From an uncultured Actinomycetota bacterium (GTDB lineage Bacteria > Actinomycetota > Acidimicrobiia > Acidimicrobiales > RAAP-2), in the NCBI GenBank assembly GCA_963715855.1, contig OY970279.1:1856363-1920362 (forward strand): 64,000 bases of DNA. The letters run 5' to 3'. The position numbers were made by a program, and so were the translations under genes. Below the pieces are notes generated by a model, which ran no database searches, was not told where the DNA came from, and saw only the letters and a list, made by a program, of their open reading frames with translations. Shown piece after piece: positions 1 through 54,353 of this stretch. Each line of letters starts with the position of its first letter. The first letter of the stretch is position 1.

Positions 1-586
1 ATCCCATCAAACGCACCATCTCGAGCTCGTGCAACAGATCGGAGCGATCGGTGATCGTGTTGGCGCTGTGGCGGGGCAGGCCCGACTCGTCGAGCACCTT
101 CATTGCCTCGGACTCGGAGAGGTGGGCCAAGATCACCTTGCCCGCGGCCGTGGCGTGGGGGAGTTCGCGCTGGCCGAGGGGCGTATGGAAGCGCACCGCG
201 CCGCGCCCGTCCACTCGTTCGACGAACACCGGATACCCGTCGTCGTTAGTGGCCAGACGGGCCGTCAACCCCGTCTTCTCGGTCAGGTGGTGCAGGAGCG
301 GCAGGGCGCTCTTGCCCAGTGAGGTCTGCTGAGCGACCAGGTCGCCGTAACGCAGCAGTGCCAGACCGAGCCGATACCGCGGACCCGGCAGGTCGATCTG
401 GAGAAGACCGAACTTGGCCAGGGTGCGAGCGGCGGCGATTGTCGAGCTCTTCGCCATGCCGACGGCGTTGGAAATCTCGGTCAGGGAGAGCCCGCTCTCG
501 CCGGCCGAGGCCACGAGTTCGAGAATCTCCATCGCGCGAGCGACGCTCTGCACTTGGTAGCGATCGATAACGGTTTCGTTCGGCAT
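1..586 (-). CDS. IclR-family transcriptional regulator (3' end runs off window)
   Basis: Manual translation from ATG at 586: MPNETVIDRYQVQSVARAMEILELVASAGESGLSLTEISNAVGMAKSSTIAAARTL (IclR HTH), later HATAAGKVILAHL (effector-domain motif). Not in ORF track because it has no stop in the window. Confidence 0.9.
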   Translation of the reverse strand, partial: MPNETVIDRYQVQSVARAMEILELVASAGESGLSLTEISNAVGMAKSSTIAAARTLAKFGLLQIDLPGPRYRLGLALLRYGDLVAQQTSLGKSALPLLHHLTEKTGLTARLATNDDGYPVFVERVDGRGAVRFHTPLGQRELPHATAAGKVILAHLSESEAMKVLDESGLPRHSANTITDRSDLLHELEMVRLMG

Positions 587-686
587 CAACGAACATAGTA
601 GCGACGCGTGACCATCCGCCGAGAGATGGTTGACCTGTGGGGCGAATCCTGCTTGACTTCAGTTTTGAGTTGACGAACGAGGTTCT

Positions 687-1817
687 GTGATTCCGAACAC
701 CCCAAAGTTGCGTGCGGCGCGCGTCGAGCACGCGCGCCGTCGCATCGGGGAACTGCGAGATCGCCACGGCGGTCGACCGTTGGTGCTGTCATCAGTCGGC
801 GCGGTCGCCTGGGCCACCGGGGGGTTTTCGTCGCCCATCGATCGAGTGGCCGCGAGCGATCCGGTCTGGGTTGTTATCGACGACGACGCGATGACGCTGG
901 TTATGAGTTCGGTCGAGGTCGCGCGCCTGGAGGCAGAGATCGAGCGCGACGGATGGGACGTGAACGTCATGAGCGCGCCGTGGTACGAGCCGCGCGCCCA
1001 TGTTGCGACCGTCGAGAGGTTATTGGGACCGCTCGCCGCGACCTGTCTCAGCGAGGGCGAACTCGGCGAGGACGTGAGCACCGAGCTAATCGCGGCGCGC
1101 CTGTCGTTAGGTGCGGCCGAGCGAACCGTGATGGAGGCGCTTGCGAAGGCGGCCACGACCGCCGTCGAGGGTGCGGCCCACTCGTGGCGTCCCGGCGTCA
1201 CGACGGACTTCGACGTGGCCGCGGAGGTGTCCGCAGAACTCGAGCGAGTGGGAGCGGACGCGGTCTGTCTCATCGTGGGGGGCGACGAGCGGGTACGACG
1301 CTTCCGGCACCCCTTGGCCACGGGTGTTCCCGTCGACGACCTGCTGATGATCGTGGTCGTCGCGCGCAGTCAGGGCCTCCACGTCGCGCTGACGCGAATG
1401 GCCGCGACACGCGCCGACGCGCGGCTGGACGATGACCTTGACCGGTGTGACGCCGTGCACCGTTCGCTTCTTGACGCGTGCCGCGAGGGCGCGACGTGGG
1501 GTGACGTCTACACCGCAATGGGCAACGCGTTCCAGAGGCTTGACGCGCCGCGGGCGTGGCGGGAGCACTTCCAGGGTGGGCCGATCGGTTACGGCCAGCG
1601 CGAGTTCGAACTTTCGCCGACGTCGAACGCGAGCCCGTGGTGGTCCGTCCCAGTGGAGCTCTCGACGGCCATCGCCTGGAACCCGAGCCTGGCCGGAGGT
1701 GCCAAGATCGAGGACACGTACGTGGTGGACAACGCCGGACCCGTTCTCTTGACCGACAGCGGGGCGTGGCCTCGGCGCGGAGGTCCGGGATCGGGGGCCG
1801 CCTTATGGGTTCAGTGA
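687..1817 (+). CDS. M24-family (Xaa-Pro peptidase/creatinase-like) hydrolase
   Basis: 376-aa ORF with RFRHP, HFQGGPIGY and GAKIEDT motifs of pita-bread-fold M24 proteins. Confidence 0.8.
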   Translation: MIPNTPKLRAARVEHARRRIGELRDRHGGRPLVLSSVGAVAWATGGFSSPIDRVAASDPVWVVIDDDAMTLVMSSVEVARLEAEIERDGWDVNVMSAPWYEPRAHVATVERLLGPLAATCLSEGELGEDVSTELIAARLSLGAAERTVMEALAKAATTAVEGAAHSWRPGVTTDFDVAAEVSAELERVGADAVCLIVGGDERVRRFRHPLATGVPVDDLLMIVVVARSQGLHVALTRMAATRADARLDDDLDRCDAVHRSLLDACREGATWGDVYTAMGNAFQRLDAPRAWREHFQGGPIGYGQREFELSPTSNASPWWSVPVELSTAIAWNPSLAGGAKIEDTYVVDNAGPVLLTDSGAWPRRGGPGSGAALWVQ

Positions 1818-1824
1818 AGGAGAC

Positions 1825-2784
1825 GTGATGAAGAACGACAACTCGATCGTGGGCCGGGGAACGCCGCGCGGTAACGCCGGAATCGAGCGAGTCCTGGGCA
1901 GTTATCAGGTCGCCGTGGAGCCCAGTGACGCGCGATTCCCCGACGGCGCCCAGATGCGCGTCGAGATTCCGTCAGTTGAGAACCCGACTGCGATGCGCGA
2001 GGTGCTCGCCGAAGCCGACGCGCTCGGCGTGGTCGTTCACCGGGTGTCCCAGGGCAGCGGCGCGATGCTGCTGAGCGAAGCCGAGCTCACGGAGATGGCG
2101 CGCATGGGGGCCGACCGCGGAGTAGAGGTGAGCCTCTTCATCGGCCCGCGCGAGGAGTTCGGCATCGGAGGTTCAGTGCACGCCAGCGAGGGTCGCGCGC
2201 TGTCCGGTCACCTTCGAGGTCTGCATCAGCTGCGCTACGCCCTCGAGGACCTCACGCGAGCCGTCGAGCAGGGGATCCGCGGATTCCTCATCGCCGACAC
2301 CGGTTTCCTTGGCGTCCTGAGTTCACTGGTGGTCGCGAACGAACTGCCCGACGACCTCGTCTTCAAGGCCTCGGCCGTGCTCGCGCCCTCGAATCCGGCC
2401 ACCTTTCGCCAACTCACCGACCTCGGTGCGTCGACCATCAACGTTCCCTCGGACCTCTCTCTGGTCGAGCTGTGCGAGATGCGCTCAGTTGCGCCCACTC
2501 CCATCGACCTCTACTTGGAGGCACCCGACTCACTCGGTGGGATGGTGCGCGGACAGGAGATTGCCGAGATCGCCCTGGCGACGGCGCCGCTCTACGCGAA
2601 GTACGGACTGCGCAACGCCCGCGCGGTCTACCCCGCCGGATACCACCTGATGGGTGACGTGGTGGACAACGCGCGCGAGAAGGTCCGTCGCGCGTCGCTC
2701 TCGCTGGAGTGGTTGCGTCGCTCGGGTGAGGAGATCACCTTCAGCCTGCCGGGGGCGGCGGGCATCGGGGTCCCTGTCCTGTGA
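1825..2784 (+). CDS. U32-family 'peptidase'-like protein, function unknown
   Basis: 319-aa ORF (RVEIPSVE, HRVSQGSG, PIDLYLEAP) resembling short actinobacterial U32-annotated proteins; stop overlaps the next start (GTGA). Confidence 0.55.
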   Translation: MMKNDNSIVGRGTPRGNAGIERVLGSYQVAVEPSDARFPDGAQMRVEIPSVENPTAMREVLAEADALGVVVHRVSQGSGAMLLSEAELTEMARMGADRGVEVSLFIGPREEFGIGGSVHASEGRALSGHLRGLHQLRYALEDLTRAVEQGIRGFLIADTGFLGVLSSLVVANELPDDLVFKASAVLAPSNPATFRQLTDLGASTINVPSDLSLVELCEMRSVAPTPIDLYLEAPDSLGGMVRGQEIAEIALATAPLYAKYGLRNARAVYPAGYHLMGDVVDNAREKVRRASLSLEWLRRSGEEITFSLPGAAGIGVPVL

Positions 2785-4490
2785 CGCTGCGCTCCAGTGC
2801 CTGGTTCGACGGGGACGACGAGGTCGCCCTAGACGCGCGCGTGGCCATCGCCATGGGCGGCAACCCGCGCCCCCACTCCGGTACCCCCGTCATCGGGCTG
2901 GCGCTAGCCGCGGGCGATCTCAATCCGTGCAATCAGCCGTTGGTGGATCTGGTGCCGCACCTGCGCGCCGGCGTCGTCGAGGCCGGCGGTGTCGCCGTGG
3001 AGTTCCCGGTGATGTCCCTGGGCGAGGACGTGATGAAGCCCGCCGCCATGCTCTATCGGAACCTGGTGGCGATGGAGATCGAAGAGTCGCTGCGCAGTCA
3101 GCCCCTCGACGGCGTGGTCGTTCTGGCGGCGTGCGACAAGTCCGTGCCCGCGGGCCTCATGGGTGCCGTGAGTGCCGAGCTACCCACGCTGCTGTTGGTG
3201 GCCGGACCTCGTCCGGTCGCACACTTCCAGGGTCGCCGAGTGGGCACCGGGACGGACCTGTGGCGCTTATGGGACGAACGGCGCGCAGGACGCCTGAATG
3301 ACGAAGAGTGGGCTGACTTTGAACGCGCGCTGACGCTCGGCCGCGGAACCTGCAACACCATGGGCACCGCGTCATCGATGGGAGTGGTGGCCGAGACGTT
3401 GGGCTTGGCCTGGCCGGGATCCACCTCGATCCCGGCGGGTGACCCACGACACGTTGACGTGGCCCAGGCCGTCGGACGTCGGATCGTCAACATGGTTCGA
3501 ATTGGTCAGCGACCGTCGGCGATGAACCGAGACGCCTTCATCACTGCGGCCCGCGTGCTGAGCGCGATCGGCGGATCGACCAATGTCGTGATCCACCTGA
3601 CCGCCATCGCCCGACGACTGGGCGTCGACCTCAACCTCGACGACTTTGACGTCGCGGGCCGCGCGGTACCCGTGATCGTCGACGTCGAACCGAGCGGGGC
3701 GGGCCTCATGGAGGACTTCGACGCGGCCGGTGGCACGCCGACTCTCTGGCGCTCGTTGGGCGACCTGATCGACACGACGTTGACCGTGGCGTCAGGCGAC
3801 ACCATCGGCGACGCGGCCAACGCCGCCGAGGATCCCCGCGGAGTAATCCGTCCGGTGTCGGACCCCGTCGACGCCGCGGGTGCCTTTCGCGTGGTTCGCG
3901 GCAACCTGGCGCCCGATGGCGCACTCATCAAACGGTCCGCGGCCAGCGTGTCGCTGCTGCAACACCGTGGGCCGGCCCTGGTGTTGCGCTCGGCCGCCGA
4001 AGCCGAACAGTTCGCCCTCACGTCCCAAGACGTAGATCCCGAAAGCGTGATCGTGCTTGCGGGCGCGGGCCCGGTCGGCGGGCCGGGGATGCCGGAGTGG
4101 GGGATGGTGTCACTACCCCCGGACCTGCTCGCGTCCGGGGTGTCCGACATGGTCCGCGTCACCGACGCGCGCATGAGCGGCACGAGCTTCGGCACCGTTT
4201 TCTTGCACGTGGCGCCCGAGGCGGCCGTGGGCGGACCGCTCGGCCTGGTCGAGAACGGCGACCTCATCAGCGTCGACGCCGACGCGGGACTCCTACATCT
4301 CGATGTCGACGATGAGGAGTTGGCACGTCGCCGGAACCGCGCCGCCGGCCCGCGCGACCACGCGCGTGGATATCTTTCTTTCTATGCGGCCCACGTCCAG
4401 CAGGCGCCCGAGGGCTGCGATTTTGATTTCCTGGCGGGGACGCCAGGCGAGGCACCCCGGCTCGTCGAGCCGGTGGTGGGGAGGTCTTGA
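2781..4490 (+). CDS. IlvD/Edd-family dehydratase, probably sugar-acid (aldonate) dehydratase
   Basis: LNPCN, ACDK, GTCNTMGTA and TDARMSGT motifs; EGCDFDFL C-terminus resembles the arabinonate/xylonate dehydratase clade. Confidence 0.88.
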   Translation: MTLRSSAWFDGDDEVALDARVAIAMGGNPRPHSGTPVIGLALAAGDLNPCNQPLVDLVPHLRAGVVEAGGVAVEFPVMSLGEDVMKPAAMLYRNLVAMEIEESLRSQPLDGVVVLAACDKSVPAGLMGAVSAELPTLLLVAGPRPVAHFQGRRVGTGTDLWRLWDERRAGRLNDEEWADFERALTLGRGTCNTMGTASSMGVVAETLGLAWPGSTSIPAGDPRHVDVAQAVGRRIVNMVRIGQRPSAMNRDAFITAARVLSAIGGSTNVVIHLTAIARRLGVDLNLDDFDVAGRAVPVIVDVEPSGAGLMEDFDAAGGTPTLWRSLGDLIDTTLTVASGDTIGDAANAAEDPRGVIRPVSDPVDAAGAFRVVRGNLAPDGALIKRSAASVSLLQHRGPALVLRSAAEAEQFALTSQDVDPESVIVLAGAGPVGGPGMPEWGMVSLPPDLLASGVSDMVRVTDARMSGTSFGTVFLHVAPEAAVGGPLGLVENGDLISVDADAGLLHLDVDDEELARRRNRAAGPRDHARGYLSFYAAHVQQAPEGCDFDFLAGTPGEAPRLVEPVVGRS

Positions 4491-4559
4491 TTGACGTGAC
4501 GTCAATGAAGGAGGCGGCCGCCAGAGCGGTGGTCGTGACGCGTAACGAGGGGAATCGAC

Positions 4560-5855
4560 ATGAAATTCATTAGGAGGAGGGGCGTCGCGGGACTGGCCGC
4601 CGGGGTGGTTCTGGCCGCCACGGTGCTCACCGCGAGCCCGTCGTGGGGTAGTGCCAAGACCACGCTGACCATCTGGGAGAACTACGGGACGGAGCAGAAC
4701 GCCGTCGCGTTGAAGAACCTGGCAACGGCCTTCACCGCCCAGAACCCGTCGATCAAGATCAACGTCGTCTCCCAGCCGGCGAGTAACTACTTCTCGCTAC
4801 TGCAGGCGGCCGCGATCTCCAAGCACGGACCGGACCTCGCGGTGATGTGGACGGGGCTCTACGCGCTGCAGTACTCGAGCTATCTGGTGGGCCTCAAGGG
4901 CCACGTCCCGGCAGCTGACCTGGCCAAGATGCAGGGTCTCAGTTGGATGTCTCCGGGGCTAACCGGGTCCACTGACCCGCTGGTCATGCCCTTGGAGACC
5001 CAGTTCTATATCGGGTTCTACAACAAGAACCTGTTCGCGCGGGCCGGCATCAAGTCGGTGCCGACCGACTGGTCCCAGCTGTTCGCCGCGTGCACCAAGC
5101 TCAAGGCGATTCACGTCACCCCCTTCACCTACGGCAACGGTGGCCAGGCGCTGGGCGCGGAGTTCTACCCCTGGTACGACATGAGCTACATGATGATCGG
5201 GAACTACTCGGTCGGTCAGTGGAAGGACCTGTACAACGGTTCGATCCCGTGGACCTCGGCGGCCAACCAGTCGTCGCTGTCCAACTGGCACAAGCTGTTC
5301 ACGACCGGCTGCACCAACCCTGACGTCCTGACCAAAACCAACAACATCCAGGACTTCGAGAAGGGCAAGGCCGCGATGATCATGGACGGCACGTGGGACA
5401 CTGCCCAGTACACCCAGTCCATGGGCACCAAGGTGGCCGCATTCGTGCCGCCGTTCTCCGCCAAGCCCATCAAGGGCGTGGTGCAGTTCCCCGGTGACGG
5501 CCTGAGCGTGATGTCGTACTCGCCCAACAAGTCCGCGGCGTTCAAGTTCCTGACGTTCATGACCACCGCGAAGGCGGCGACGATCATCAACGCGGCCGGA
5601 CTGATCCCGGACATCACCGGCGCCTCGACCTCTAACCCGGTCAACCAGCAGATGCTCAACTTCGTCACCAGGGACCACATGACGGCGTACCCGATGCTCG
5701 ACAACGTCACCCAGGTGAACGTCGTCAACGCCGGGTCGACCGAACTGCCCACGGTGCTCAACGGACAGGCGACCGCCAAGGCGGCGCTCCAGAAGTTGCA
5801 GCAAACGCTGATGCAGTACCCGGCGTCCCAGCGCGGCAGCAAGTACACCGGTTAA
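4560..5855 (+). CDS. Carbohydrate ABC transporter substrate-binding protein
   Basis: Signal peptide, GPDL and GKAAMIMDGTW motifs, upstream of two permeases. Confidence 0.9.
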   Translation: MKFIRRRGVAGLAAGVVLAATVLTASPSWGSAKTTLTIWENYGTEQNAVALKNLATAFTAQNPSIKINVVSQPASNYFSLLQAAAISKHGPDLAVMWTGLYALQYSSYLVGLKGHVPAADLAKMQGLSWMSPGLTGSTDPLVMPLETQFYIGFYNKNLFARAGIKSVPTDWSQLFAACTKLKAIHVTPFTYGNGGQALGAEFYPWYDMSYMMIGNYSVGQWKDLYNGSIPWTSAANQSSLSNWHKLFTTGCTNPDVLTKTNNIQDFEKGKAAMIMDGTWDTAQYTQSMGTKVAAFVPPFSAKPIKGVVQFPGDGLSVMSYSPNKSAAFKFLTFMTTAKAATIINAAGLIPDITGASTSNPVNQQMLNFVTRDHMTAYPMLDNVTQVNVVNAGSTELPTVLNGQATAKAALQKLQQTLMQYPASQRGSKYTG

Positions 5856-5869
5856 CCCTCGGTAGCGTG

Positions 5870-5900
5870 ACCGGCCGGCGCATGACGTGCGCCGGCCGGT
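5870..5900 (+). terminator. Perfect 13-bp hairpin after the SBP gene (partial terminator or mRNA stabiliser)
   Basis: ACCGGCCGGCGCA-TGACG-TGCGCCGGCCGGT between the SBP and permease genes. Confidence 0.65.
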
Positions 5901-5925
5901 ACGCCGCCTCGACGAGAGTGATTAG

Positions 5926-6858
5926 TTGAGCCTCAGTTCCACCATCGCGGTCCCGCGTCCCGAGGCACCGGTGCGACGCCGCGCGGTGCCGTCACTGCTC
6001 ACGCGTCGTCGCCGTCGCGTGGGGGTCGTGCTGACCCTGCCAGCGTTCATTCTGGTGGGCCTGTTGATCGTGTGGCCGATCCTGCAGGCCGTTTACTACT
6101 CGATGACCAACTGGGATGGACTGACCACGAAGTGGGTCGGCCCGAGTACCTGGTGGCAGGCCTTCCACAATCCGACGATGTGGCGCGCCCTGGAGAACAA
6201 TGCGCTCCTGCTGCTAGCGGTGCCCTTCGCGCTGGCGCTGCCGCTCGCGGTGGCGGTCATGCTGCACCAGCGCGTCGCGGGCTGGAAGGTGTTCCGGTCC
6301 ATCTACTTCCTGCCCACGGCCATCTCCTGGGTCGTGATCGGGTTGGTGGCCGAGCACTTCTTCGCCTATTCGGGCACGTTGAACTCGCTGCTGCACCACG
6401 TCGGCGTGTCCGGGGCCCACACCGACCTGCTCGGGTCGGAGTCGACGGCGTTGATCGCGTTAGGCATCACGTTCGTCTTCTCGATGATCGGGACCAACAC
6501 GATGATCTTCCTGACCGGACTGGCGACGCTCGACACCAGCCTGGAGGAGGCCGCGCGCATCGACGGCGCCGGCACCTGGCGGATCTTTCGCCACATCACC
6601 TTGCCGCACCTCAGCCGGTTCATCCAGCTGGCCTTCGTGATGACCGTCATCTCCGCGTTCTCGGCGCTCTTCAGCCTGATCTTTGTCATGACCGGTGGTG
6701 GTCCGGGCTACGCGACAACGACCATGGAGTTCCTCGTCTACCAGACCGGCTTCAACCAGTCCCAGTTCGGGACCGCCGCGCTCTACGGGCTCATCCTCTT
6801 CGTAATCACCGCCGTCGTGGGGGTCATCCAGCTGCGCCTGATCGGGGCGAACGACTAG
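5926..6858 (+). CDS. Carbohydrate ABC transporter permease
   Basis: Multiple TM segments, EAARIDGA (EAA loop). Confidence 0.92.
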   Translation: MSLSSTIAVPRPEAPVRRRAVPSLLTRRRRRVGVVLTLPAFILVGLLIVWPILQAVYYSMTNWDGLTTKWVGPSTWWQAFHNPTMWRALENNALLLLAVPFALALPLAVAVMLHQRVAGWKVFRSIYFLPTAISWVVIGLVAEHFFAYSGTLNSLLHHVGVSGAHTDLLGSESTALIALGITFVFSMIGTNTMIFLTGLATLDTSLEEAARIDGAGTWRIFRHITLPHLSRFIQLAFVMTVISAFSALFSLIFVMTGGGPGYATTTMEFLVYQTGFNQSQFGTAALYGLILFVITAVVGVIQLRLIGAND

Positions 6859-7706
6859 TGAGCACCGTCACCGTTCCTACCCCCGGCGTGCGTTCGCCGC
6901 GGCGCCGACGCGTTACGCGCATGCTCATTTTCGGTGCGATGGTCGTGATGGCCGTCGTGATGCTCTATCCGTTCGCGGTGATGATCCTCACCAGCTTCAA
7001 GACCCAGGCCCAGTACTACGCGGGCTCTGGCAGTTCGACCCAGAGCTGGCGTCAACTGGCCTCGGCGCTACCCATCTACCAACAGTTGCTCAACTCGACC
7101 ATCGTGTGCAGCGCGTCCATCGCGGTGATCCTGGTCGTGGGCGTGATGGCCGGGTTCGCGTTCGCCAAGCTCCAGTACCGCTTCGCCAACCTGATCTTCC
7201 TCGGCATCGTGAGCGCGATGATGGTGCCGCTGCAGGCGATCATCATCCCCGAGTACGTCAACGTCGCGCGCTTCGGTCTCACCAACGGCTATCTCGGCGC
7301 GGTCCTGGTGTACGCCGCGTTGGGAACGCCCTTTTCGATCTTCCTCTTCACCACGTACTTCCGCCGGGTCCCCGACGAGCTGGTCGAGGCCGGCATCTGT
7401 GACGGCCTCGGATACTGGGGCGTGCTGTGGCGCCTGGCGCTGCCGATGGCGCTGCCGGCCATCGCCACGGTGACCGTGTTGCAGTTCATCCAGATCTGGG
7501 ACGACCTATTGGTGGGACTGCTCTTCTTGCAGAACCCCGCCGAGAGGCCCATCACCGTGGGCCTGGCCGCATTGGCCGCCGGGCGCACGACGTCGATACC
7601 GCTGCTGATGGCGGGCTCTTTGGTGTCGGCGTTGCCAGCCATGCTCGTCTATCTGGGCTTCCAGCGTTTCTTAGTTCGCGGGCTGACGCTCGGGATCGAC
7701 CGGTAG
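6858..7706 (+). CDS. Carbohydrate ABC transporter permease
   Basis: GTG at 6858 overlaps the previous TAG; VPDELVEAGICDG EAA loop. Confidence 0.92.
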   Translation: MSTVTVPTPGVRSPRRRRVTRMLIFGAMVVMAVVMLYPFAVMILTSFKTQAQYYAGSGSSTQSWRQLASALPIYQQLLNSTIVCSASIAVILVVGVMAGFAFAKLQYRFANLIFLGIVSAMMVPLQAIIIPEYVNVARFGLTNGYLGAVLVYAALGTPFSIFLFTTYFRRVPDELVEAGICDGLGYWGVLWRLALPMALPAIATVTVLQFIQIWDDLLVGLLFLQNPAERPITVGLAALAAGRTTSIPLLMAGSLVSALPAMLVYLGFQRFLVRGLTLGIDR

Positions 7707-7714
7707 GAGAGTTC

Positions 7715-8887
<1,173 letters not shown>

Positions 8888-8905
8888 ACAAGCAGAGGAG
8901 CCAAC

Positions 8906-10426
8906 GTGACCCAGGTGCTGTCCACCAATCCCGTGACGGGCGAGGCGACGCCGATCGGCATCGACGAGTCCGATGCCGCCGGCGTCGCCACCGCCACGAT
9001 GGCCGCCGCCGACGCGGCACCGTTGTTCGCGGCAACTGACCTGGCGGGGCGGGCAGCTCAGTTGGACGCGATCGCGGCCGCCCTCGAAGCCGACGCGACC
9101 TCCATCGTCGAGACCGCCGATCGCGAGACGGCGCTCGGGGAGGCGCGCCTGGGCGGCGAACTTCGGCGCACCTGTTTTCAGTTCCGCTTCTTCGCCGACG
9201 TGGTGCGCGATGGCGCATTCTTGGAAGCGAGCGTCGATCACGCGCGCGACACCCCGATGGGTCCTCTGCCGGACCTACGACGCCAGCTCGAACCCTTGGG
9301 TCCGGTGGGTGTCTTCGGCGCATCCAACTTCCCGTTGGCCTTCTCCGTGCCGGGCGGGGACACCGCGTCGGCGTTGGCCGCGGGCTGCCCAGTGGTGGTC
9401 AAGGCCCACCCGGCCCACCCGGCGACGTCGTTGAGGACCTTCACCGCGATGCGTCACGCACTCGACGCGAATGGCGCCCCCACGGGGACGCTGTCACTGA
9501 TCTTCGGGATGGACGCGGGCGTCGCGCTGGTGACGGACCCGCGCGTCACCGCGGTGGGTTTCACCGGCTCGTACGGCGCCGGTCGTTCGCTGTTCGAGTT
9601 AGCGAACGCGCGCGCGACGCCGATTCCGTTCTACGGCGAGCTCGGTAGCGTCAACCCCCTGGTCGTCACGCCGCGCGCCGCCGCGGCCCGCGGCGCGGCG
9701 ATCGGTGAAGGACTGGTCGGGTCGGTGACGCTGGGCGCGGGACAGTTCTGCACGAGGCCCAGCCTGCTGTTCGTACCCGCCGGCAAGGACGGCGACGCCC
9801 TGGTGGACGCCGCGCGCGCCGCGCTGGAGGCTCAGTCGGGCGCCACGATGTTGTCGCGCGCCATTCGTGACCGCTTCGTCGGGGGAGTGGACCGACTGCT
9901 GGGCGTGCCCGGGGTCTCTCTGGTCGCCCGATCGGACACGCCTTCGAGCGACGCCGGGTCGGGTGCCGTCCTGATCGCGACCGATCTCGCGACTCTCACG
10001 GGGCCGAACCGCTCAGACCTGGAGACCGAGTGTTTTGGGGCGATCGGGATCTTCGTTCGCTACGACGACGTCGAGGAGTTACTGGCGACGCTGGCGACGC
10101 TGGAGCCGGCGCTCACCTTCAGCGTGCACGCCGAGTCAGACGAGCCGCTGGGCTCGTCGCTCGTCACCCTGGGCGCGCGCCAGGCCGGACGGGTCCTCGT
10201 CAACGGTTACCCCACGGGTGTCGGAGTGTCGTGGTCGATGCATCACGGAGGGCCGCTCCCCGCCGCCACGTCGAGCCTGCACACGTCGGTCGGGGCGTCG
10301 GCCATGCGACGTTGGCTGCGACCCATCTGTTACCAGGCCCTGCCGGACGAGTGGCTGCCACCGGCGTTGCGTGATGCGAATCCCTGGGGTGTGCCGCGTC
10401 GCGTTGACGGCGTGCGCGAAGGCTAA
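8906..10426 (+). CDS. NADP-dependent aldehyde dehydrogenase, alpha-ketoglutaric semialdehyde dehydrogenase-like
   Basis: FGASNFPLAFSV, VKAHPAHP, GQFCTRP, PTGVGVSWSMHHGGP. Confidence 0.85.
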   Translation: MTQVLSTNPVTGEATPIGIDESDAAGVATATMAAADAAPLFAATDLAGRAAQLDAIAAALEADATSIVETADRETALGEARLGGELRRTCFQFRFFADVVRDGAFLEASVDHARDTPMGPLPDLRRQLEPLGPVGVFGASNFPLAFSVPGGDTASALAAGCPVVVKAHPAHPATSLRTFTAMRHALDANGAPTGTLSLIFGMDAGVALVTDPRVTAVGFTGSYGAGRSLFELANARATPIPFYGELGSVNPLVVTPRAAAARGAAIGEGLVGSVTLGAGQFCTRPSLLFVPAGKDGDALVDAARAALEAQSGATMLSRAIRDRFVGGVDRLLGVPGVSLVARSDTPSSDAGSGAVLIATDLATLTGPNRSDLETECFGAIGIFVRYDDVEELLATLATLEPALTFSVHAESDEPLGSSLVTLGARQAGRVLVNGYPTGVGVSWSMHHGGPLPAATSSLHTSVGASAMRRWLRPICYQALPDEWLPPALRDANPWGVPRRVDGVREG

Positions 10427-10431
10427 GTCAC

Positions 10432-10848
10432 GTGGTGCGCCTCAACGAGAACTCGCGGCGCGCACTTTCTGCCGGGCGCCTCGGGCACCTGGTCACGGTG
10501 AATGAGGACGGTAGTCCTCAGGCGAGTGTCGTGTGGATTGGAGTCGACGGCGACGACGTCGTGGTGGGTCACCTCATGGGTGGCCAAAAGGTGCAGAACA
10601 TCCGGCGTGATGCGCGTGTGGTGCTCACCGTGGAGGCCGACGGCGCAAACGAGATCGGCCTCGGTCACTACCTGATCATCTACGCCAACGCTTCGCTGGA
10701 CGAAGGCGGCGCCCCCGAACTTCTGCAGCGCCTCGCCGAGGTCTACCTCGGACCGGGCGTCACGTTCCCCGACTTTGAGGCGCCGCCCGGGCACGTGATT
10801 CGCCTGCGCGTCGAGCGCGTGGGCGGCGTCGGTCCCTGGACCTCGTAG
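10432..10848 (+). CDS. PPOX-class F420-dependent oxidoreductase
   Basis: LVTVNEDGSPQASVVW, KVQNIRRDARV. Confidence 0.85.
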   Translation: MVRLNENSRRALSAGRLGHLVTVNEDGSPQASVVWIGVDGDDVVVGHLMGGQKVQNIRRDARVVLTVEADGANEIGLGHYLIIYANASLDEGGAPELLQRLAEVYLGPGVTFPDFEAPPGHVIRLRVERVGGVGPWTS

Positions 10849-10851
10849 TAG

Positions 10852-12048
10852 CTACTGCGACGCGCCGCGGGCCGTAACCTCGGCCACGCCGATCACGTCG
10901 TCACCGCGCACCAACCACACGTGGTCGTAGCGGTCGACGGTCGGGTCACAGTGCGGCGGCACCAGCGACAGTCGCTGGCCCCGGCGCAGTGGATCACGCG
11001 GGTCACAGGTCACGAGCCCGTGCTCGTCGCCGAAGAACTGGTACGCCCCACCCTGGGGTCCCAGCACCCGGGGCGGTCCGGCGTCGGTCGCCATTGACTT
11101 GATGCCCGCATCCACGGTGGCGAATCCGTCGTGGTTCGCCGAGACGACCGTGGTGTCGATGGTGAGGCTCTGGTGGAACCGCCCCTCGGGGTCCTCGCCC
11201 AGCGCGTCGGCGTACTCGCGGTCCATGAAGACGTAGCTGCCGGGTTGGAGTTCGTTGAGACGGCCCGCCTCGAGGTCGAGTCCGGTGGTGCCGGTGCCGC
11301 CGCCGGTCACGACGGAGACCGCCATTCCGGCCTCGTCCAGCGCGTCGACGACCTCACCGAGGCGCGCCATGGCGAGCAGATTCGCCTCGCGACGCTCGGT
11401 CCGCCCGTGGATGTGCTGGAGGTGGCCCGCGTACCCCTGGACCCCGCCGAAGTCGAGTCCGTCGACGTCGATGATGCGCTCAACGACGCGCAGCGCGTGG
11501 GACGCGTCGACCACACCCGTGCGCTCGAGCCCCACGTCCACGTCGCACAGCGCACCGGCTCGTGTGCCCTCGCGGGCGAGGGCGCGCACGAGTTCGTCGA
11601 CCCCGTCGGGGTGATCCACCGCGATCGTCAGGTCACACGAGCGCGCCAGCTCGGCGGCGCGCGCGGTGGGCACCGGACCGACGAGCGGCGACGTGATCAA
11701 GATCGACACGCGTAGGTCGTAGCCGTCCTCGATCAGGCCCGCAACTACCGCCTCGGCCTCCGCCAGCTTCGCGCAGGCTAGGCCGACTGCCCCCGCCTCC
11801 AACTGGCGGCGCGCGACGAACGTCGACTTGTGAGACTTGACGTGCGGGCGCAGAGCAACCGAGCCCGCCCGCGTGAGCTCCATCATCCGCTGAATGTTCT
11901 CGTCCAATAGGTCAACGTCGAGGACCAGGGCCGGGGTCGGAATGTCCGATCGAGTCGGCGCGTTGGCCCGACTCGACAGAACGGACTCGATGAGGCGACG
12001 ACGCACTCGGTCGTTGACCGTGGGGCCCTCGGGGTTGCCCGACGTCAC
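10852..12048 (-). CDS. PLP-dependent enzyme, D-threonine aldolase/DSD1 family
   Basis: TPALVLD, RPHVKSHK (PLP lysine), ELQPGSYVFMD, HCDPT. Confidence 0.85.
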   Translation of the reverse strand: MTSGNPEGPTVNDRVRRRLIESVLSSRANAPTRSDIPTPALVLDVDLLDENIQRMMELTRAGSVALRPHVKSHKSTFVARRQLEAGAVGLACAKLAEAEAVVAGLIEDGYDLRVSILITSPLVGPVPTARAAELARSCDLTIAVDHPDGVDELVRALAREGTRAGALCDVDVGLERTGVVDASHALRVVERIIDVDGLDFGGVQGYAGHLQHIHGRTERREANLLAMARLGEVVDALDEAGMAVSVVTGGGTGTTGLDLEAGRLNELQPGSYVFMDREYADALGEDPEGRFHQSLTIDTTVVSANHDGFATVDAGIKSMATDAGPPRVLGPQGGAYQFFGDEHGLVTCDPRDPLRRGQRLSLVPPHCDPTVDRYDHVWLVRGDDVIGVAEVTARGASQ

Positions 12049-13454
12049 TGGGTGAGGGGCGCGGTGAGGGGCCAGGGAAACTCGCGCTCGGCGACTCGGG
12101 CCAGATCGAGCAGGAGTTGCTCTTCGTGGTGACGACCGATGACCTGTAGTCCGATGGGTAGTTCGTCCATCTCTCCCGAAGGGATGCTCACGGCGGGATT
12201 GCCCGCCAGGTTGGCGGGGAACGTCAGTGCCCCGTTGTTGGACAATGCGCGGTCCAATCCGTAGGTGGCGATCAGGTCGACGCCGCCGACGGTCGTGGCC
12301 ATGGGACCGGCCGCGTTGAAGGCGATGTCCGGATTCGTCGCGCAGATGATGTAGTCGGTTTGCTCAAAGATCTCAGCCATCTTTTCATTGAAGAGGATGC
12401 GAAACATTTCGGATGCACCGACGGCGTCGATCGAGAAGCGCTCCATCGCGAAGCTCATCGCTAGCTGAACCTCTGGGGTGAGGTCGTCGTGACAGTCGGG
12501 GTAGAGGTCCCCGAGCAGACCCGCCAGACCGCTCAGGTTGGAGAGGGCCCACTCGGTCCCACCGACCGGGAAGTCGACGACCACGTCGACGCGCGCGAGC
12601 CCCGCGGCCGCGATCAATTCCTCTGCGCGCTGGGTAAGGATCTGCGCCTGACGCTCGTCGATGATGGCGCCACCGAGATCCATCGCGATGACCGCACGCC
12701 GGCCGCGCAGGTCGAAGCTGTCCAGACCGGCCTCCCAACCCTCCACGCGCGGCAGGCTCAGCGTGTCGCGTGGGTCGAACCCGTTGCACACGTCAAACCA
12801 CCTTGCCGTGTCGCGCACCGAGCGCGAGAGGCAACCCACGACGACCGTGAGTGGGGGCTGATGGGCGAACGGGCCCTTAGGGATGCGCCCGAACGTTGAC
12901 TTGAGGGCGAACAGTCCCGTGAACCCGGCAGGGATGCGCAGGGATCCGCCGCCGTCACCGCCGGAACCGATCGGCACCAGACCGCCCGCGACTGCCGCGG
13001 CGGTGCCGCCGGAGGACCCGCCGGGAGTGCGCTCGAGACTCCAAGGATTACGCGTCGTTCCGTGGAGCCGGGTGTTGGTGCAGTTGATGAACCCGAACTC
13101 CGAGGCGGTGGTCTGGCCAACCAACACGGCCCCCGCGTCACGCAAACGCGACACCTGGGTCGAGTCGGCGTGCGCGACGCGGTCCTTGAAGACGAGCGAG
13201 GCGAATGTCGCAGGCCATCCTGCGACGGCGTCAAGCTCCTTGATCGCTATGGGCACGCCGCCGAACGGCAAGGTGATGTCGGCGTCGTCGGCTGTGGCGC
13301 GCGCCCGGTCCGCGTCAACCAGGCTGAAGGCATTGAGGTCGGACGTGGCGATCGCGTCGAGCGACGCGTCCAGCGCCTCGCGGGGGCTCAACTCTCGCGC
13401 GCGAAAGGCATCGACGAGTGCGCACGCGTCGCCTCGCCACGCGTCGTTGCTCAC
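12045..13454 (-). CDS. Amidase signature family protein
   Basis: PIAIKE, TPGGSSGG, GDGGGSLRIPA. Confidence 0.92.
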   Translation of the reverse strand: MSNDAWRGDACALVDAFRARELSPREALDASLDAIATSDLNAFSLVDADRARATADDADITLPFGGVPIAIKELDAVAGWPATFASLVFKDRVAHADSTQVSRLRDAGAVLVGQTTASEFGFINCTNTRLHGTTRNPWSLERTPGGSSGGTAAAVAGGLVPIGSGGDGGGSLRIPAGFTGLFALKSTFGRIPKGPFAHQPPLTVVVGCLSRSVRDTARWFDVCNGFDPRDTLSLPRVEGWEAGLDSFDLRGRRAVIAMDLGGAIIDERQAQILTQRAEELIAAAGLARVDVVVDFPVGGTEWALSNLSGLAGLLGDLYPDCHDDLTPEVQLAMSFAMERFSIDAVGASEMFRILFNEKMAEIFEQTDYIICATNPDIAFNAAGPMATTVGGVDLIATYGLDRALSNNGALTFPANLAGNPAVSIPSGEMDELPIGLQVIGRHHEEQLLLDLARVAEREFPWPLTAPLTQ

Positions 13455-13469
13455 AGAGGGAGAGACTAC

Positions 13470-14555
13470 CTAGTGAACCGGCGGTGCAGGACTATCGGTG
13501 TCGATCGGCGTGGCGTCACGAATCAGCCACCGTCCATGGTGATGACACCACCCGAAGTGCTCAGGTGCGTCTCCGGGTCGCGTGACCATGACCTGCGTGG
13601 CCCCGCCCTGGGGCGGCGCGGTGGAACCTCGAGGAGCTGGCCACTCCACGGCGGCGGGGAGCTCCAGCGAGATCCACGCGACGTTGCCGTGCGCGCACAG
13701 CTCGGTCATGCGATCGAAGTAGGTAGCTTGCGCATCGCGCGAGAGGTAGGCGGCGAACCACGTGTTCGTGATCACCGTTGGGACTCCGGTCTCTCCCGCG
13801 GCGAGGGCATCATCCAGTCGTTCCAAGGCGTCGCCGCGCAGGATCGTGAGGTCCGGCCACGACGCCCGGGCGTGGATGATGGCGTCTACGCGTTCAAAGC
13901 GTCGACGCTCCTCGGGCCACACACACGCCTCAAGCCACCGCTGGTCGTGGGGGCTCGTCAGATCGAGCGGATTGCGGTCGATACCCGTGCGTGTCGCGAT
14001 CTCGGGCAGCGGTATTGATCGATCGATGGGTCCCTCGTCGCGGCACACGAGGGTCATCGGGTCGGCGTCGTCGACTGACGAGACGCGATACTTGTCGAGG
14101 TACAGGTTCAGTCCGGCGGACGTCCCCACATCGAGGAGATTGACGCGTTCGGCCCCCGCGGCGGCGTAGGGAAGGACCGCGCGGAGCACGGCGGACCGGC
14201 CCGGTTCGTTGGTTTGGGTGGACCGGTGCAGTTGCGTCCGCACCAGTTCCGGATCGGTGTTCAGGACGGAGATCACCGTGGTCACCATCTCGTCCACCGA
14301 GTCGGTTCGTCCGTGGCGCACGGCGTCATAGAGGGGACCGAGAACCGGGTGACCCTCGAGGGCCAGGTAGTGCAGCGCCGCCAGGATCAACATGGGGTTG
14401 CGCTGTTCGCTGCGTACCTCGGCGAGTAGGCGCAGCGCCGTGTCGTCGTCGCCAAGTGCGCGAATCAAGCTCGCATAGAACGGGAGTCGTTCTTGGTCCT
14501 CGGGCGTGAGCGCCCAGCCGTAGCGTTTTCGGGCGTCGTCCAGATCGAGTTCCAC
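13470..14555 (-). CDS. DUF2332-family protein
   Basis: TQTNEPGRS, LLDVGTSAGLNL, WLEACVWPE; start moved to GTG 14555 because TAGGAT lies 7 nt upstream. Confidence 0.75.
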   Translation of the reverse strand: MELDLDDARKRYGWALTPEDQERLPFYASLIRALGDDDTALRLLAEVRSEQRNPMLILAALHYLALEGHPVLGPLYDAVRHGRTDSVDEMVTTVISVLNTDPELVRTQLHRSTQTNEPGRSAVLRAVLPYAAAGAERVNLLDVGTSAGLNLYLDKYRVSSVDDADPMTLVCRDEGPIDRSIPLPEIATRTGIDRNPLDLTSPHDQRWLEACVWPEERRRFERVDAIIHARASWPDLTILRGDALERLDDALAAGETGVPTVITNTWFAAYLSRDAQATYFDRMTELCAHGNVAWISLELPAAVEWPAPRGSTAPPQGGATQVMVTRPGDAPEHFGWCHHHGRWLIRDATPIDTDSPAPPVH

Positions 14556-14624
14556 CGCGCGAATCCTAAGTGTGTGGGCAACCAAGAGTGCGCGAAGCAA
14601 AGGCGACGAGACCTCGCATTGGCT

Positions 14625-15113
14625 CTAGTCAGCGGTCAGATCCAGTTCGTACCACTGTCCGGGGCGACCACCGACCTCGGTCGGTCCATCGGGAACGAAC
14701 CCCACTTTTTCCAGCACCTTTTGAGAGGCGATGTTCTCGTTGCTGGTGGCCGCCCGCAGGGTGTGGAGTTCGAAGTCCCGTCGGGCAATTTGGGTGAGTT
14801 CTCGCAATGCGGTTGTCGCGACGCCCCGGCCAGCCGCGTTTTGGGCAACGCGGTAACCGACGACCGCCGTCGAGTCGTTGATGTCATATAGGTTGAAGCG
14901 GCCGACGACGGTCCCATCGTCATCGACGAGAACGTGGAATGCGAACTTTCCGGACTCTTGGTCGTCCAACAGTGTGCGGTGCTGCTCGGCATACGTCTCA
15001 AAAAACGCGTCGCCGCGATCGTTGATCGATTCGGCGAAGTACGCCCGGTTGGCCACCTCAAAATCGAAGACCGGAGCTTCATGGTCGTCGCGAAGTCTCT
15101 GTAGGTGAAACAC
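14625..15113 (-). CDS. GNAT (RimJ/RimL-type) N-acetyltransferase
   Basis: VGYRVAQNAAGRGVAT, NIASQKVLEKVGF. Confidence 0.88.
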   Translation of the reverse strand: MFHLQRLRDDHEAPVFDFEVANRAYFAESINDRGDAFFETYAEQHRTLLDDQESGKFAFHVLVDDDGTVVGRFNLYDINDSTAVVGYRVAQNAAGRGVATTALRELTQIARRDFELHTLRAATSNENIASQKVLEKVGFVPDGPTEVGGRPGQWYELDLTAD

Positions 15114-15214: not shown

Positions 15215-15237
15215 CATTCGGGGTAAATCTCAAGGAG

Positions 15238-15582
15238 TGGAGGTGCGGGCGTCGAAGCCCGGTCCGATGATTCCTTGGTGAACATTCTCCGAGCGCAGCT
15301 GTCAGAAGATTGTCGGGGTGGCCACTGCTGTCAGCTCCTTTGGACACCCGTAGTTAACTAAGTTTTCCCGCCGAGACCGTTAACGGATCAGGTCGGTAAG
15401 TCCCGCATTATGACGCCCTAGATCTGAACCGCAGGACCGGGTCCAGGAGGACGTTGCTACCTAAGCAGCAAGCGCAAGCGAAGGCTTGGCGTTTATTTAG
15501 TTTTCCGGCTCTTTAACGTGGTTCCGGAGACCACGGCTCGCTTCTTTCACCTCAACAATCAACGTCGAAACCATTCACCCCC
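15238..15582 (-). ncRNA. ssrA: tmRNA; tag peptide (A)AKPSLALAA encoded at 15490-15461
   Basis: 5' GGGGGTGAATGGTTTCGAC; 3' GGACCGGGCTTCGACGCCCGCACCTCCA; acceptor stem with G3-U pair; resume signal AATAAAC-GCC; smpB nearby. Confidence 0.95.
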
Positions 15583-15988
15583 TCGTCTCGGCTCAGACTT
15601 TCAAAGCCGAACACCCATTCTACTGAAGGCCAAAGAGTCGAGGTCGGCGGGAGATTCGGCACCGAACGTCGAGGGCTTCGATGGTCTCGTCGCAGAACCC
15701 TCGAACTTGCGCCATTCAAGCTCGACGTCACAGTCGCGAGAGGTGACAGCAAGCCTTATCTCCGGGGGCACCTACGGCATCGTTTGGAAAAGCGCGCACA
15801 AGTGAGAGAAAACTGTCGTGGATCAGGGTGGCGACCGTCATTCGTGGCGGACGAGCACGACCGAATCGTCTCGATCGCGTCACTTTGTTCGATGAGTCCC
15901 GATAATCGCTAAACCTCGAAAGTTGCTGGGACATTCAATTGACTGGCTGTTACCATCACAGGGAGTTTTTGTGCAAAAAGGGGTCGAG

Positions 15989-16975: not shown

Positions 16976-17078
16976 TGCGAACGTGAAGGATCGGTTGGAG
17001 ACCGCGGAGGTGAGGCGCGCCCCCGCGGGACTAGGGGTTGGTCATAGGCGCGTCGCAATCAGCCGGTTCAGTTCCTGG

Positions 17079-17597
17079 CTAGGCGTACTTCTCTCGCTCT
17101 CTCGACGCGCGAGCCATCTCACGGTCAGCGTCTCGTTTGGCCATCTCCTGACGCCGATCGTGTTGCTTACGACCTCTGGCGAGTCCGATTTCGATCTTGG
17201 CCCGACCCTCTTTGAAGTAGAGCTTCAAGGGGATGAGAGTCAGGGGCTGGGTCGTTGTCTGGCCGCGAAAGCGTTCGACCTGGTGACGGTGGGCGAGCAG
17301 CTTTCGTTTTCGGTCCGGATCGTGGCTGCCGAAGCCCACGGCGTGCGACCAGGGAGGAATGTGGGATCCGAAGAGCCACAACTCGTCGTCCTCGACGCGC
17401 ACGTACCCGTCGCCGATCTGTGCGGTTCCGCCCCGCAGGGACTTCACTTCTGACCCGGTGAGTACCAGGCCGCATTCGAGGGTCTCGAGGATTTCGTAGT
17501 CGTGACGGGCGCGCCGATTGGAGGCGACCACCCGGTCACCGATCACGCCTTCGCGCTGCGCCGCTCGCCGGGCTTGCATCTTCTTGGCTCGAGCCAC
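17079..17597 (-). CDS. smpB: SsrA-binding protein
   Basis: NRRARHDY, GLVLTGSEVKSLR, RKRKLLAH, LARGRKQHDRR; GTG 17597 with TACGCT 7 nt upstream. Confidence 0.96.
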   Translation of the reverse strand: MARAKKMQARRAAQREGVIGDRVVASNRRARHDYEILETLECGLVLTGSEVKSLRGGTAQIGDGYVRVEDDELWLFGSHIPPWSHAVGFGSHDPDRKRKLLAHRHQVERFRGQTTTQPLTLIPLKLYFKEGRAKIEIGLARGRKQHDRRQEMAKRDADREMARASREREKYA

Positions 17598-48593: not shown

Positions 48594-48620
48594 AAGGAAC
48601 GCTTCAGCAGTATCGGCCGC

Positions 48621-48713
48621 GGACCATGCGCAGCCTGCCAATCGTCAAGACGGGACGGGAAACCTCCTCCGCCCTCTCGCCCGTCTTGACGATTGGGGGG
48701 CTGCAGATGGCCC
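48621..48713 (+). repeat. Long inverted repeat (17-bp perfect core, 34 bp overall) covering the rsmH start
   Basis: CCAATCGTCAAGACGGG (48638-48654) pairs with CCCGTCTTGACGATTGG (48680-48696); outer pairing extends over ATG 48707. Confidence 0.9.
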
Positions 48714-54351: not shown

Positions 54352-54353
54352 CC

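Follow-up and report, generated by a model that had tools for sequence, protein, structure and literature searches.

A predicted non-phosphorylative aldose oxidation operon in an uncultured Acidimicrobiales bacterium, with a U32-like barrel and an M24-like protein beside its sugar-acid dehydratase

The 64,000-nucleotide stretch of DNA analysed here (the window) comes from an uncultured bacterium of the Acidimicrobiales (assembly GCA_963715855.1, contig OY970279.1, positions 1,856,363 to 1,920,362). Near its left edge it carries an operon in which an IlvD/Edd-type sugar-acid dehydratase, a sugar transporter of the ATP-binding cassette (ABC) type and an aldehyde dehydrogenase (ALDH) are accompanied by a triosephosphate isomerase (TIM) barrel with weak similarity to family U32 and by a protein of the M24 fold. 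Each gene that the initial annotation had named was found at its place, the operon itself running from the start of the M24-like gene (687) to the stop of the ALDH gene (10426), and the tight packing on one strand was also confirmed, as successive genes are separated by -4 to +70 bases.

Gene order and conservation of the operon

The locus is made up of the following features, with lengths in amino acids (aa):

1-586, minus strand: IclR-family regulator, N-terminal 195 aa; transcribed away from the operon, with the rest of the gene outside the window
587-686: 100-bp spacer between the divergent genes, presumed to hold promoter and operator, with a putative regulatory role
687-1817, plus strand: M24-like pita-bread protein, 376 aa; Pfam Peptidase_M24, E = 1.3e-11
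1825-2784, plus strand: U32-like (beta/alpha)8 TIM barrel, 319 aa; Pfam U32 below cutoff, E = 0.0064
2781-4490, plus strand: IlvD/Edd-family [Fe-S] sugar-acid dehydratase, 569 aa; Pfam ILVD_EDD_N and ILV_EDD_C, NCBIfam PRK06131
4560-5855, plus strand: substrate-binding protein of a CUT1-type sugar ABC transporter, 431 aa, whose N-terminus resembles a signal peptide; Pfam SBP_bac_1 and SBP_bac_8
5926-6858, plus strand: ABC permease 1; Pfam BPD_transp_1
about 6864-7706, plus strand: ABC permease 2; Pfam BPD_transp_1, start approximate, homologues of 277-280 aa
about 7718-8887, plus strand: MalK-type ABC ATPase; Pfam ABC_tran, OB_MalK and TOBE_2, start at 7718-7745, homologues of 382 aa
8906-10426, plus strand: NADP-type ALDH of the cd07129 family, 506 aa; matches to PDB entries 1eyy and 3v4c

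From the M24-like gene onwards the gaps are +7, -4 (an overlap), +69, +70, about +5, about +11 and +18 bases, and given the first two of these values the M24-like, barrel and IlvD genes appear to be translationally coupled. No inverted repeat of at least 8 bp was found in the 100 bp between the IclR and M24-like genes. The IclR portion in the window matches IclR-type NCBIfam models, with BhcR (110 bits) and PcaR/KdgR at the top, all of them below cutoff, and the complete regulator has 263 aa on a public contig that encodes an identical M24 protein.

The gene order of the window is kept in more than 40 related genomes. Relatives of the barrel were collected in a scan of one genome per species, which returned 588 genomes and from which the best 80 loci were taken, and in a metagenome scan made with more distant members, 41-50% identical to the window barrel, which had 579 matches and from which 80 further loci were taken (individual loci are given below by L numbers). 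Dozens of genomes from the Acidimicrobiales and the Streptosporangiales share the order, their proteins being 40-90% identical, and this recurrence argues that the arrangement is not due to chance. Contigs with close relatives of the barrel show the same nine-gene order, and permease 1 is 75-92% identical in close relatives. The counts refer to the 51 loci in which the barrel gene is flanked by no less than 4 kb of upstream and 8 kb of downstream sequence. An IlvD gene lies within 9 kb of the barrel gene in 45 of these and immediately downstream of it in 40, so that the co-occurrence with IlvD that the initial annotation proposed to look for is borne out; IclR is likewise present in 45, the ABC binding protein with its permeases in 43, and the M24-like gene in 39, immediately upstream of the barrel gene in 35. 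Some loci depart from this order. In an actinomycete metagenome-assembled genome (L069), two barrel copies (4222-5073 and about 8966-9900), 58% identical to the window protein, lie one after the M24-like gene and the other before IlvD, with the transporter genes between them. In the cultured Sphaerisporangium album (L070, 3447-9681), three large genes, none of them M24, precede barrel, IlvD and ALDH; the one of 592 aa is a hydantoinase B/oxoprolinase subunit according to Pfam, and the others encode 774 and 712 aa.

Sugar oxidation is provided for immediately outside the window. On the contig with the identical M24 protein, a 333-aa gene with ADH_N, Glu_dehyd_C and ADH_zinc_N domains lies directly past IclR, and the aldose 1-dehydrogenase expected of a Weimberg-type route is thus encoded in the window's organism a few hundred bases beyond the edge; it is missing from the window because the window starts inside the IclR gene. 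The earlier statement that a sugar dehydrogenase is absent therefore stands for the parts of the window tested, but it describes an edge artefact. This glucose-dehydrogenase-like zinc-dependent alcohol dehydrogenase (Zn-ADH), which matches Pfam Glu_dehyd_C in the related loci, lies past IclR in 43 of the 51 loci and was found in 60 of about 82 loci overall. A lactonase of the SMP-30/SGL type belongs to the operon in 16 of the 51 loci, in many sister loci between the transporter genes and the ALDH gene. Neither the window nor its nearest relatives have one, the gap between ATPase and ALDH being only 18 bases, and tblastn of the window with an SGL query from a related locus gave no match. Lactones can also open spontaneously. 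In low-GC freshwater actinobacterial loci that lack the M24-like gene, an aldose 1-epimerase (mutarotase) follows the permeases.

The keto-deoxy-acid enzymes of known routes are the other group not found. A Pfam scan of 20 window open reading frames (ORFs; 230-400 aa, between 13.4 and 59 kb) detected no fumarylacetoacetate hydrolase (FAH), dihydrodipicolinate synthase (DHDPS), SGL or sugar dehydrogenase protein, and tblastn of the window was equally negative when DHDPS-like and FAH sequences of related loci served as queries; within the parts of the window covered, the absence of both a lactonase and a FAH- or DapA-type dehydratase, as first annotated, is thereby upheld. A FAH- or DHDPS-type gene occurs in five of about 160 related loci (L044, L047, L062, L089 and, as a weak match, L052). 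The gene in L044, L047 and L062 is an orthologous DHDPS-family member whose best solved match is the L-2-keto-3-deoxyarabonate dehydratase 3fkk (E = 3e-19), and it lies inside the operon after the lactonase gene in L044, while the FAH gene of L089 is placed between dehydratase and ALDH. Judged by these sequence searches, the operons normally lack the usual keto-deoxy-acid enzyme.

The two flanking enzymes of such a route are recognisable at family level. The window IlvD scores above cutoff against NCBIfam PRK06131 (670 bits) and below cutoff against the L-arabinonate dehydratase model (648 bits, cutoff 882), its nearest solved relatives are 8ej0 and the L-arabinonate dehydratase 5j83/9evv, and the CDK and GTC cluster motifs are seen in its translation; by Pfam, NCBIfam and solved relatives it is an aldonate dehydratase of the Weimberg kind at the level of the family. 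The window ALDH matches 1eyy (2.6e-112) and 3v4c (2.1e-97), with all remaining PDB matches at 1e-17 or weaker, and keeps the cd07129 residues Asn (ASNFP), Glu (GELG), Cys (GQFCT) and His (HHGGP), which make its assignment to cd07129, the family of 2-oxoglutarate semialdehyde (KGSA) dehydrogenase and of the V. harveyi ALDH, unambiguous at the sequence level. These four residues have been described for the family, in which the members with a characterised metabolic role are KGSA dehydrogenases (PMC12041015). As the family also holds a fatty-aldehyde dehydrogenase, the substrate of the window enzyme is not readable from its sequence. In the Streptosporangiales operons a different ALDH replaces the cd07129 one, and its top two NCBIfam models are KGSA dehydrogenases (456 and 408 bits, both below cutoff), with the third model at 337 bits. 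The initial annotation proposed to look for an association of the barrel with KGSA dehydrogenase genes, and the barrel is tied to ALDHs of two families.

The U32-like barrel and the M24-like protein

The window barrel scores 16.2 bits against Pfam U32, below the gathering cutoff of 22.4, and 18 of 33 diverse relatives match the same model weakly (best 2.4e-8), on which basis we regard the family as a distant branch of U32. No NCBIfam or PDB sequence match was obtained, and Pfam, NCBIfam and PDB searches likewise gave no match to the HpcH/HpaI or DapA families. Thousands of relatives are labelled "hypothetical protein", the nearest of them from Acidimicrobiales, and a full-library search groups the relatives into 897 clusters at 50% identity. 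The structure prediction proposed earlier yielded an AlphaFold2 model of eight beta-alpha units forming a (beta/alpha)8 barrel, with a mean predicted local distance difference test (pLDDT) score of 84.5. Its top Foldseek match is the U32 domain of Mk0906 (5d88), with template modelling (TM) scores of 0.38/0.48, and it is followed by aldolases of class II and of the DmpG/HsaF kind, lyases of the PrpB type and DapA-like proteins, among others. Since these are generic barrels, the fold itself assigns no function to the protein.

The family is set apart from other U32 proteins by its cysteines. The window protein has a single one (C217), alignments A1-A3 contain no conserved Cys column, and the four-Cys 4Fe-4S motif, present in most U32 proteins and required for UbiU (PMC10990095), does not occur in the family. 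The residues conserved across it lie on or just after barrel strands (E47, R73, D158, K181, N206, R242 and K259). A role as a peptidase or as a prephenate-dependent or Fe-S hydroxylase is not supported by these sequences, in line with the initial suspicion that the protein is no peptidase.

A neighbour-joining tree of barrel sequences labelled by genomic context reveals three clades. Clade 1 comprises the actinobacterial IlvD-linked members, including that of the window. In clade 2 the barrel gene adjoins a GHMP kinase gene, often together with a Gfo/Idh/MocA oxidoreductase. In clade 3, about 45% identical, it adjoins an acid-sugar dehydratase of the enolase superfamily (MR_MLE), often with a metallo-beta-lactamase (MBL)-fold hydrolase, and three of these loci (L089, L090, L148) carry a cd07129-like ALDH. 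Locus L090 has the order AraC, sugar transporter of the major facilitator superfamily (MFS), MBL hydrolase, SDR, barrel, enolase-type dehydratase and ALDH; its dehydratase passes the galactonate dehydratase cutoff, no DapA or FAH gene is present in the locus, and by its gene content it appears to be a complete oxidative set in which the keto-deoxy-acid step alone has no assigned enzyme. Cultured carriers of this clade include Thermomicrobium roseum, whose megaplasmid encodes IclR, binding protein, ATPase, MR_MLE, MBL, a split permease and a "U32 family peptidase", and Streptomyces nigrescens, with lactonase, MR_MLE, Zn-ADH, barrel and ABC transporter on plasmid SNP1. The T. roseum permease, between MBL and U32 (L166, 7732-8910; NC_011961), consists of two ORFs, is missing from the gene table and may be a frameshift or pseudogene of the type strain. 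In clades 1 and 3 only an acid-sugar dehydratase accompanies the barrel throughout, and the dehydratase families of the two clades are unrelated, as would be expected of a barrel enzyme that acts on the dehydratase product. Barrel and ALDH genes also pair where no dehydratase gene is nearby (L057, L061, L086, L088, L110).

Outside the IlvD- and enolase-linked contexts the neighbourhoods differ. A GHMP-family kinase of about 303 aa lies directly upstream of the barrel-family gene in 17 metagenome loci, often after a Gfo/Idh/MocA gene (among them L093, L097, L098, L103, L104, L108, L114, L123, L126, L127, L130, L131, L139, L146, L149 and L151), and an Enterobacter plasmid homologue (L168) follows a 'phosphotransferase' gene. 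In those clades the kinase pairing may indicate elimination or cleavage of a phosphorylated substrate. Distant members at about 30% identity (L083 from Kutzneria albida, L084, L085 and L168), annotated 'peptidase' or 'U32 family peptidase', occupy biosynthetic-looking clusters with ATP-grasp, AsnB, FAD oxidase, aminotransferase, kinase and radical SAM genes. The link to sugar acids is for this reason considered clade-specific, and transfer of function from P0195-type members (29% identity), which share this biosynthetic-looking context, was rejected. A lactonase role for the barrel was discarded as well, because SGL or MBL-fold hydrolases accompany it in most loci.

The M24-like protein is a member of the pita-bread fold by profile (Pfam, 45 bits against a cutoff of 23) and by structure, its AlphaFold2 model (pLDDT 90) matching prolidases and creatinases at TM 0.72-0.77; prolidase, creatinase, the ectoine hydrolase DoeA and the dimethylsulfoniopropionate lyase DddP are matched equally well, at 0.72-0.75. 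It has no NCBIfam match. In the profile alignment to Pyrococcus prolidase 1pv9, four of the five residues that bind the dinuclear metal centre (Asp, Asp, His, Glu, Glu) are lost, with D209 falling into a gap and D220, H284 and E313 replaced by A234, G298 and N332; E327 survives as E342, and the 'HP' motif still has its His, as H208. The replaced positions are invariant in 30 relatives, as are H208 and many Arg residues. We contend, from alignment and model, that this is a metal-free pita-bread protein and not a metallopeptidase.

The M24-like gene is confined to the clade-1 IlvD-linked actinobacterial operons. Low-GC loci that lack it keep transporter, dehydrogenase, lactonase, IlvD, barrel and ALDH and add a mutarotase, in two cases also a DHDPS-like gene. 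As it is dispensable in these equivalent operons, the protein is probably accessory, and it might serve as a partner of the barrel, as an auxiliary hydrolase or, less likely, as the dehydratase itself. A function as lactonase is weakened by the SGL and MBL-fold hydrolases that co-occur in most loci. One related arrangement is of a different kind: in L071 (15918-20786) and L080 the M24-like gene has moved about 9 kb downstream, and genes for a GNAT acetyltransferase, an M20 amidohydrolase and an SDR stand after the transporter and before it. No other context seen hints at a substrate of the N-acyl or amide kind.

Proposed pathway and competing explanations

Given the observed gene content, synteny, family memberships and loss of the metal-binding and Fe-S motifs, we propose, with a probability of roughly 0.4, that these genes form an operon under IclR control for the oxidative, non-phosphorylative catabolism of an aldose, in which the U32-like barrel serves as the keto-deoxy-acid dehydratase, the catalytic steps given to the barrel and to the M24-like protein being predictions. 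The sugar would be imported by the CUT1 ABC system and oxidised to its lactone by the glucose-dehydrogenase-like Zn-ADH encoded past the left edge of the window, and the lactone would open spontaneously or, in sister clades, through the operon-encoded SMP-30 lactonase. The IlvD/Edd enzyme would then convert the aldonate into a 2-keto-3-deoxy-aldonate, which the Cys-free barrel, coupled to IlvD, would turn into an aldehyde. The chemistry favoured for this step is elimination of the 4-hydroxyl to give 2,5-dioxopentanoate (KGSA), which the cd07129 ALDH would oxidise to 2-oxoglutarate; the operon would in that case be self-contained down to an intermediate of the tricarboxylic acid cycle. The pathway is predicted to start from a free aldose, whose oxidation yields the aldonate, since aldose dehydrogenase, lactonase and, in one clade, mutarotase belong to the operon family. 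The imported sugar is most likely a pentose, and the ligand of the binding protein itself is not assignable, because it has only remote matches to solved sugar and oligosaccharide binding proteins (E of 1e-15 or higher).

That the barrel adjoins an IlvD or an enolase-type dehydratase together with ALDHs of two families makes it most likely, on this contextual evidence, that it turns the 2-keto-3-deoxy acid into the substrate of the ALDH. Whether it does so by dehydration or by aldol cleavage is a finer question, on which dehydration is tentatively favoured for the window's clade: the cd07129 ALDH, the KGSA-like ALDH of the Streptosporangiales and the persistent barrel-ALDH pairs all point in this direction. 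In the somewhat less probable alternative, the barrel would be a 2-keto-3-deoxy-aldonate aldolase of the Dahms type or of the non-phosphorylative Entner-Doudoroff (ED) type, releasing pyruvate and a small aldehyde (glycolaldehyde, lactaldehyde or glyceraldehyde) for oxidation by the ALDH. Several observations lend weight to it, and some of them also count against dehydration. Three loci (L116, L133, L141) combine an anion-type MFS transporter, an enolase-type dehydratase whose top model is L-rhamnonate dehydratase, the barrel and a beta-hydroxyacid dehydrogenase, a gene set that we take to mirror the E. coli rhmRDTA and gar clusters, with an aldolase filling the slot of the barrel. The third enzyme of those E. 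coli clusters is an HpcH-type aldolase. An ALDH accompanies clade-3 barrel and MR_MLE genes in only three of eight metagenome loci and in neither of the two loci from cultured organisms, and dehydratase and barrel stand without a nearby ALDH in T. roseum, S. nigrescens and L135. An aldehyde co-product that differs between loci would fit the variable downstream partner (two ALDH families, a reductase or none), an aldolase would not be redundant beside KdpD-like genes, the weak fold matches are mostly C-C lyases (class II aldolases, DmpG/HsaF, PrpB-type), and the distant relatives lie beside aminotransferases in biosynthetic-looking clusters. On the other side, both ALDH types of the window's clade are nearest to characterised KGSA dehydrogenases, the operons contain no conserved genes for glycolate, lactate or glycerate utilisation, the fold matches stay below TM 0.5, and the aldolase-like contexts come from another clade with about 45% identity. 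Further points tell against the dehydratase assignment as such. Foldseek matches of the barrel within the top 50 reach TM scores of only 0.35-0.47, pairwise comparison of the Streptosporangiales ALDH with solved structures gives generic ALDH matches only, and literature searches yielded neither a characterised member of the barrel family nor a comparable sugar-acid route. DHDPS-like or FAH genes coexist with the barrel gene in L044, L047, L062 and L089, so that the barrel is not always a replacement and does not show the strict exclusion of FAH/DapA genes that the initial annotation had predicted. Its broader idea of a non-orthologous replacement agrees with the dehydratase and ALDH neighbourhood, but an aldolase is as hard to exclude. 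In DapA-like families both aldolases and dehydratases are found, and for that reason the clades of the barrel may differ in their chemistry.

Three other explanations shift the roles of the two proteins. It is unlikely that the M24-like protein is the missing dehydratase, a pita-bread lyase comparable to DddP, with the barrel epimerising or isomerising the aldonate, lactone or keto-deoxy acid. The lost metal site, the invariant Arg-rich residues with the creatinase-type His, and the presence of DddP and creatinase among the structural matches would suit such a lyase, and so would the occurrence of DHDPS-like genes mainly in the M24-less clade (L047, L062) as compared with one of 39 M24 loci. 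Yet barrel, dehydratase and ALDH occur without M24, DapA or FAH in L090 and L058, barrel-ALDH pairs exist without M24, L044 holds M24, barrel and a DHDPS-like gene together, and M24 is limited to one clade while the barrel is the universal partner of the dehydratase. Still less probable is hydrolysis by the M24-like protein of an amide or amino-acid conjugate that releases the sugar acid or sugar. Its fold is that of C-N hydrolases (prolidase, creatinase, ectoine hydrolase), and creatinase shows that metal-free hydrolysis is possible in the pita-bread fold. Glycosides and oligosaccharides, rather than monosaccharides, are frequent cargo of CUT1 transporters, and none of the loci seen has both M24 and aldose 1-epimerase, which would fit release of a defined anomer, while L071 places its M20 hydrolase and GNAT genes between transporter and M24. 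This is set against the loss of four metal ligands, an M24-less operon with a 53-56% identical binding protein and the confounding of the M24/mutarotase pattern with lineage. The proposal that the M24-like protein frees the sugar acid from a conjugate also goes unsupported because the dehydrogenase and lactonase make the sugar acid by oxidation within the pathway, a sugar-acid conjugate being unnecessary, and the undescribed conjugate-degradation pathway of the initial annotation falls with it. Least credible of all is that the barrel is a conventional U32 peptidase or prephenate-dependent Fe-S hydroxylase placed in the operon by chance; the faint Pfam U32 similarity and Mk0906 as top structural match are outweighed by the match below cutoff, the missing Cys column and an adjacency to acid-sugar dehydratases that is conserved in two clades.

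We regard the operon as a variant of a known pathway type. The Weimberg operons (Caulobacter xylXABCD, Azospirillum araABCDE, Sulfolobus AraDH/AraD/KdaD/DopDH) follow the same logic of aldose dehydrogenase, optional lactonase, dehydratase, keto-deoxy-acid step and ALDH, the window shares its IlvD/Edd-type dehydratase with bacterial pentonate pathways, and its ALDH is a member of a KGSA dehydrogenase family. The window differs in its uptake by a CUT1 ABC system and, together with most related loci, in having neither the FAH-type (D-KdpD) nor the DapA-type (L-KdpD) enzyme, in whose place the U32-like barrel and the M24-like protein stand, two uncharacterised protein families within this variant. 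With the Dahms route and the E. coli rhm and gar systems it shares the succession of a dehydratase and a TIM-barrel enzyme, with the aldehyde handled by an ALDH or reductase; unlike theirs, the window barrel is not HpcH/HpaI or DapA by sequence, and the ALDHs of its clade resemble KGSA dehydrogenases and not lactaldehyde or glycolaldehyde dehydrogenases. The U32 superfamily (PrtC, RlhA, TrhP, UbiU/UbiV) has the (beta/alpha)8 barrel and a weak but recurrent Pfam similarity in common with the barrel, which is however a single domain of about 310-320 aa in a setting of sugar-acid catabolism, not of RNA or quinone modification. The M24-like protein shares the two-domain prolidase/creatinase fold of creatinase, DoeA/EutD and DddP and resembles creatinase in its mostly replaced metal ligands and retained 'HP' His, but belongs to none of these families at the sequence level.

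Seen across clades, we give even odds to the wider view that the U32-like barrels are dehydratases (forming KGSA) or aldolases depending on the clade, independently recruited beside IlvD- and enolase-type dehydratases, and that the substrate of the metal-free M24-like partner is a carboxylate derived from sugar and not a peptide. Weimberg and Dahms routes are used in engineering to convert hemicellulose sugars into 2-oxoglutarate-derived chemicals, and to our knowledge the keto-deoxy-acid-consuming step is known from two enzyme families only. If the proposal is true, a third, unrelated catalyst would become available as an engineering part, and an annotation gap would be closed in at least several hundred genomes, mainly of soil and freshwater Actinomycetota. 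It would also be the first non-redox metabolic function of a U32-like barrel and the first biochemical handle on Cys-free 'U32 peptidase' annotations, as well as a handle on a clade annotated as 'Xaa-Pro dipeptidase' that cannot be metallopeptidases. The culturable carriers T. roseum, S. nigrescens and S. album permit direct testing.

Neighbouring features of the window and of related loci

Among the related loci, L135 (5657-14463) has isocitrate lyase and malate synthase genes directly upstream of its MBL, barrel and MR_MLE genes and a glycoside hydrolase family 31 (GH31) glycosidase downstream; this context could reflect Dahms-type glyoxylate formation from a xyloside, or it could be a coincidence.

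In the window, an ORF of 138 aa with a PNPOx_N domain (flavin mononucleotide-binding split barrel; 10432-10848, plus strand) starts 6 bases past the ALDH stop, was found in none of about 160 related loci and is probably not part of the conserved operon. It is followed by a convergent three-gene block (10852-14600, minus strand) that encodes a BhcC-like protein, an amidase and a DUF2332 protein. The first is similar to D-Ser dehydratase and 3-hydroxy-D-aspartate aldolase (265 bits, below cutoff), and BhcR is the best, sub-threshold model of the operon's IclR. All four were rejected as pathway members because they are not conserved in the related loci.

A transfer-messenger RNA (tmRNA) gene (15235-15582, minus strand; Rfam, 124 bits) with the tag peptide AKPSLALAA lies beyond this block, with an ORF of 162 aa (14625-15113, minus strand) just downstream of it. 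Beside the tmRNA gene, about 1.5 kb of ORF-poor DNA with a lower GC content of 0.55 extends from 15600 to 17080, and since tmRNA genes are common integration sites, it could be the remnant of an integrated element. A division and cell wall (dcw) cluster occupies 48521-59000 on the plus strand, encoding MraW methylase, MraY-type glycosyltransferase 4, MurG and MurB, with large ORFs at 50076-53323 and 56701-58062 interspersed.

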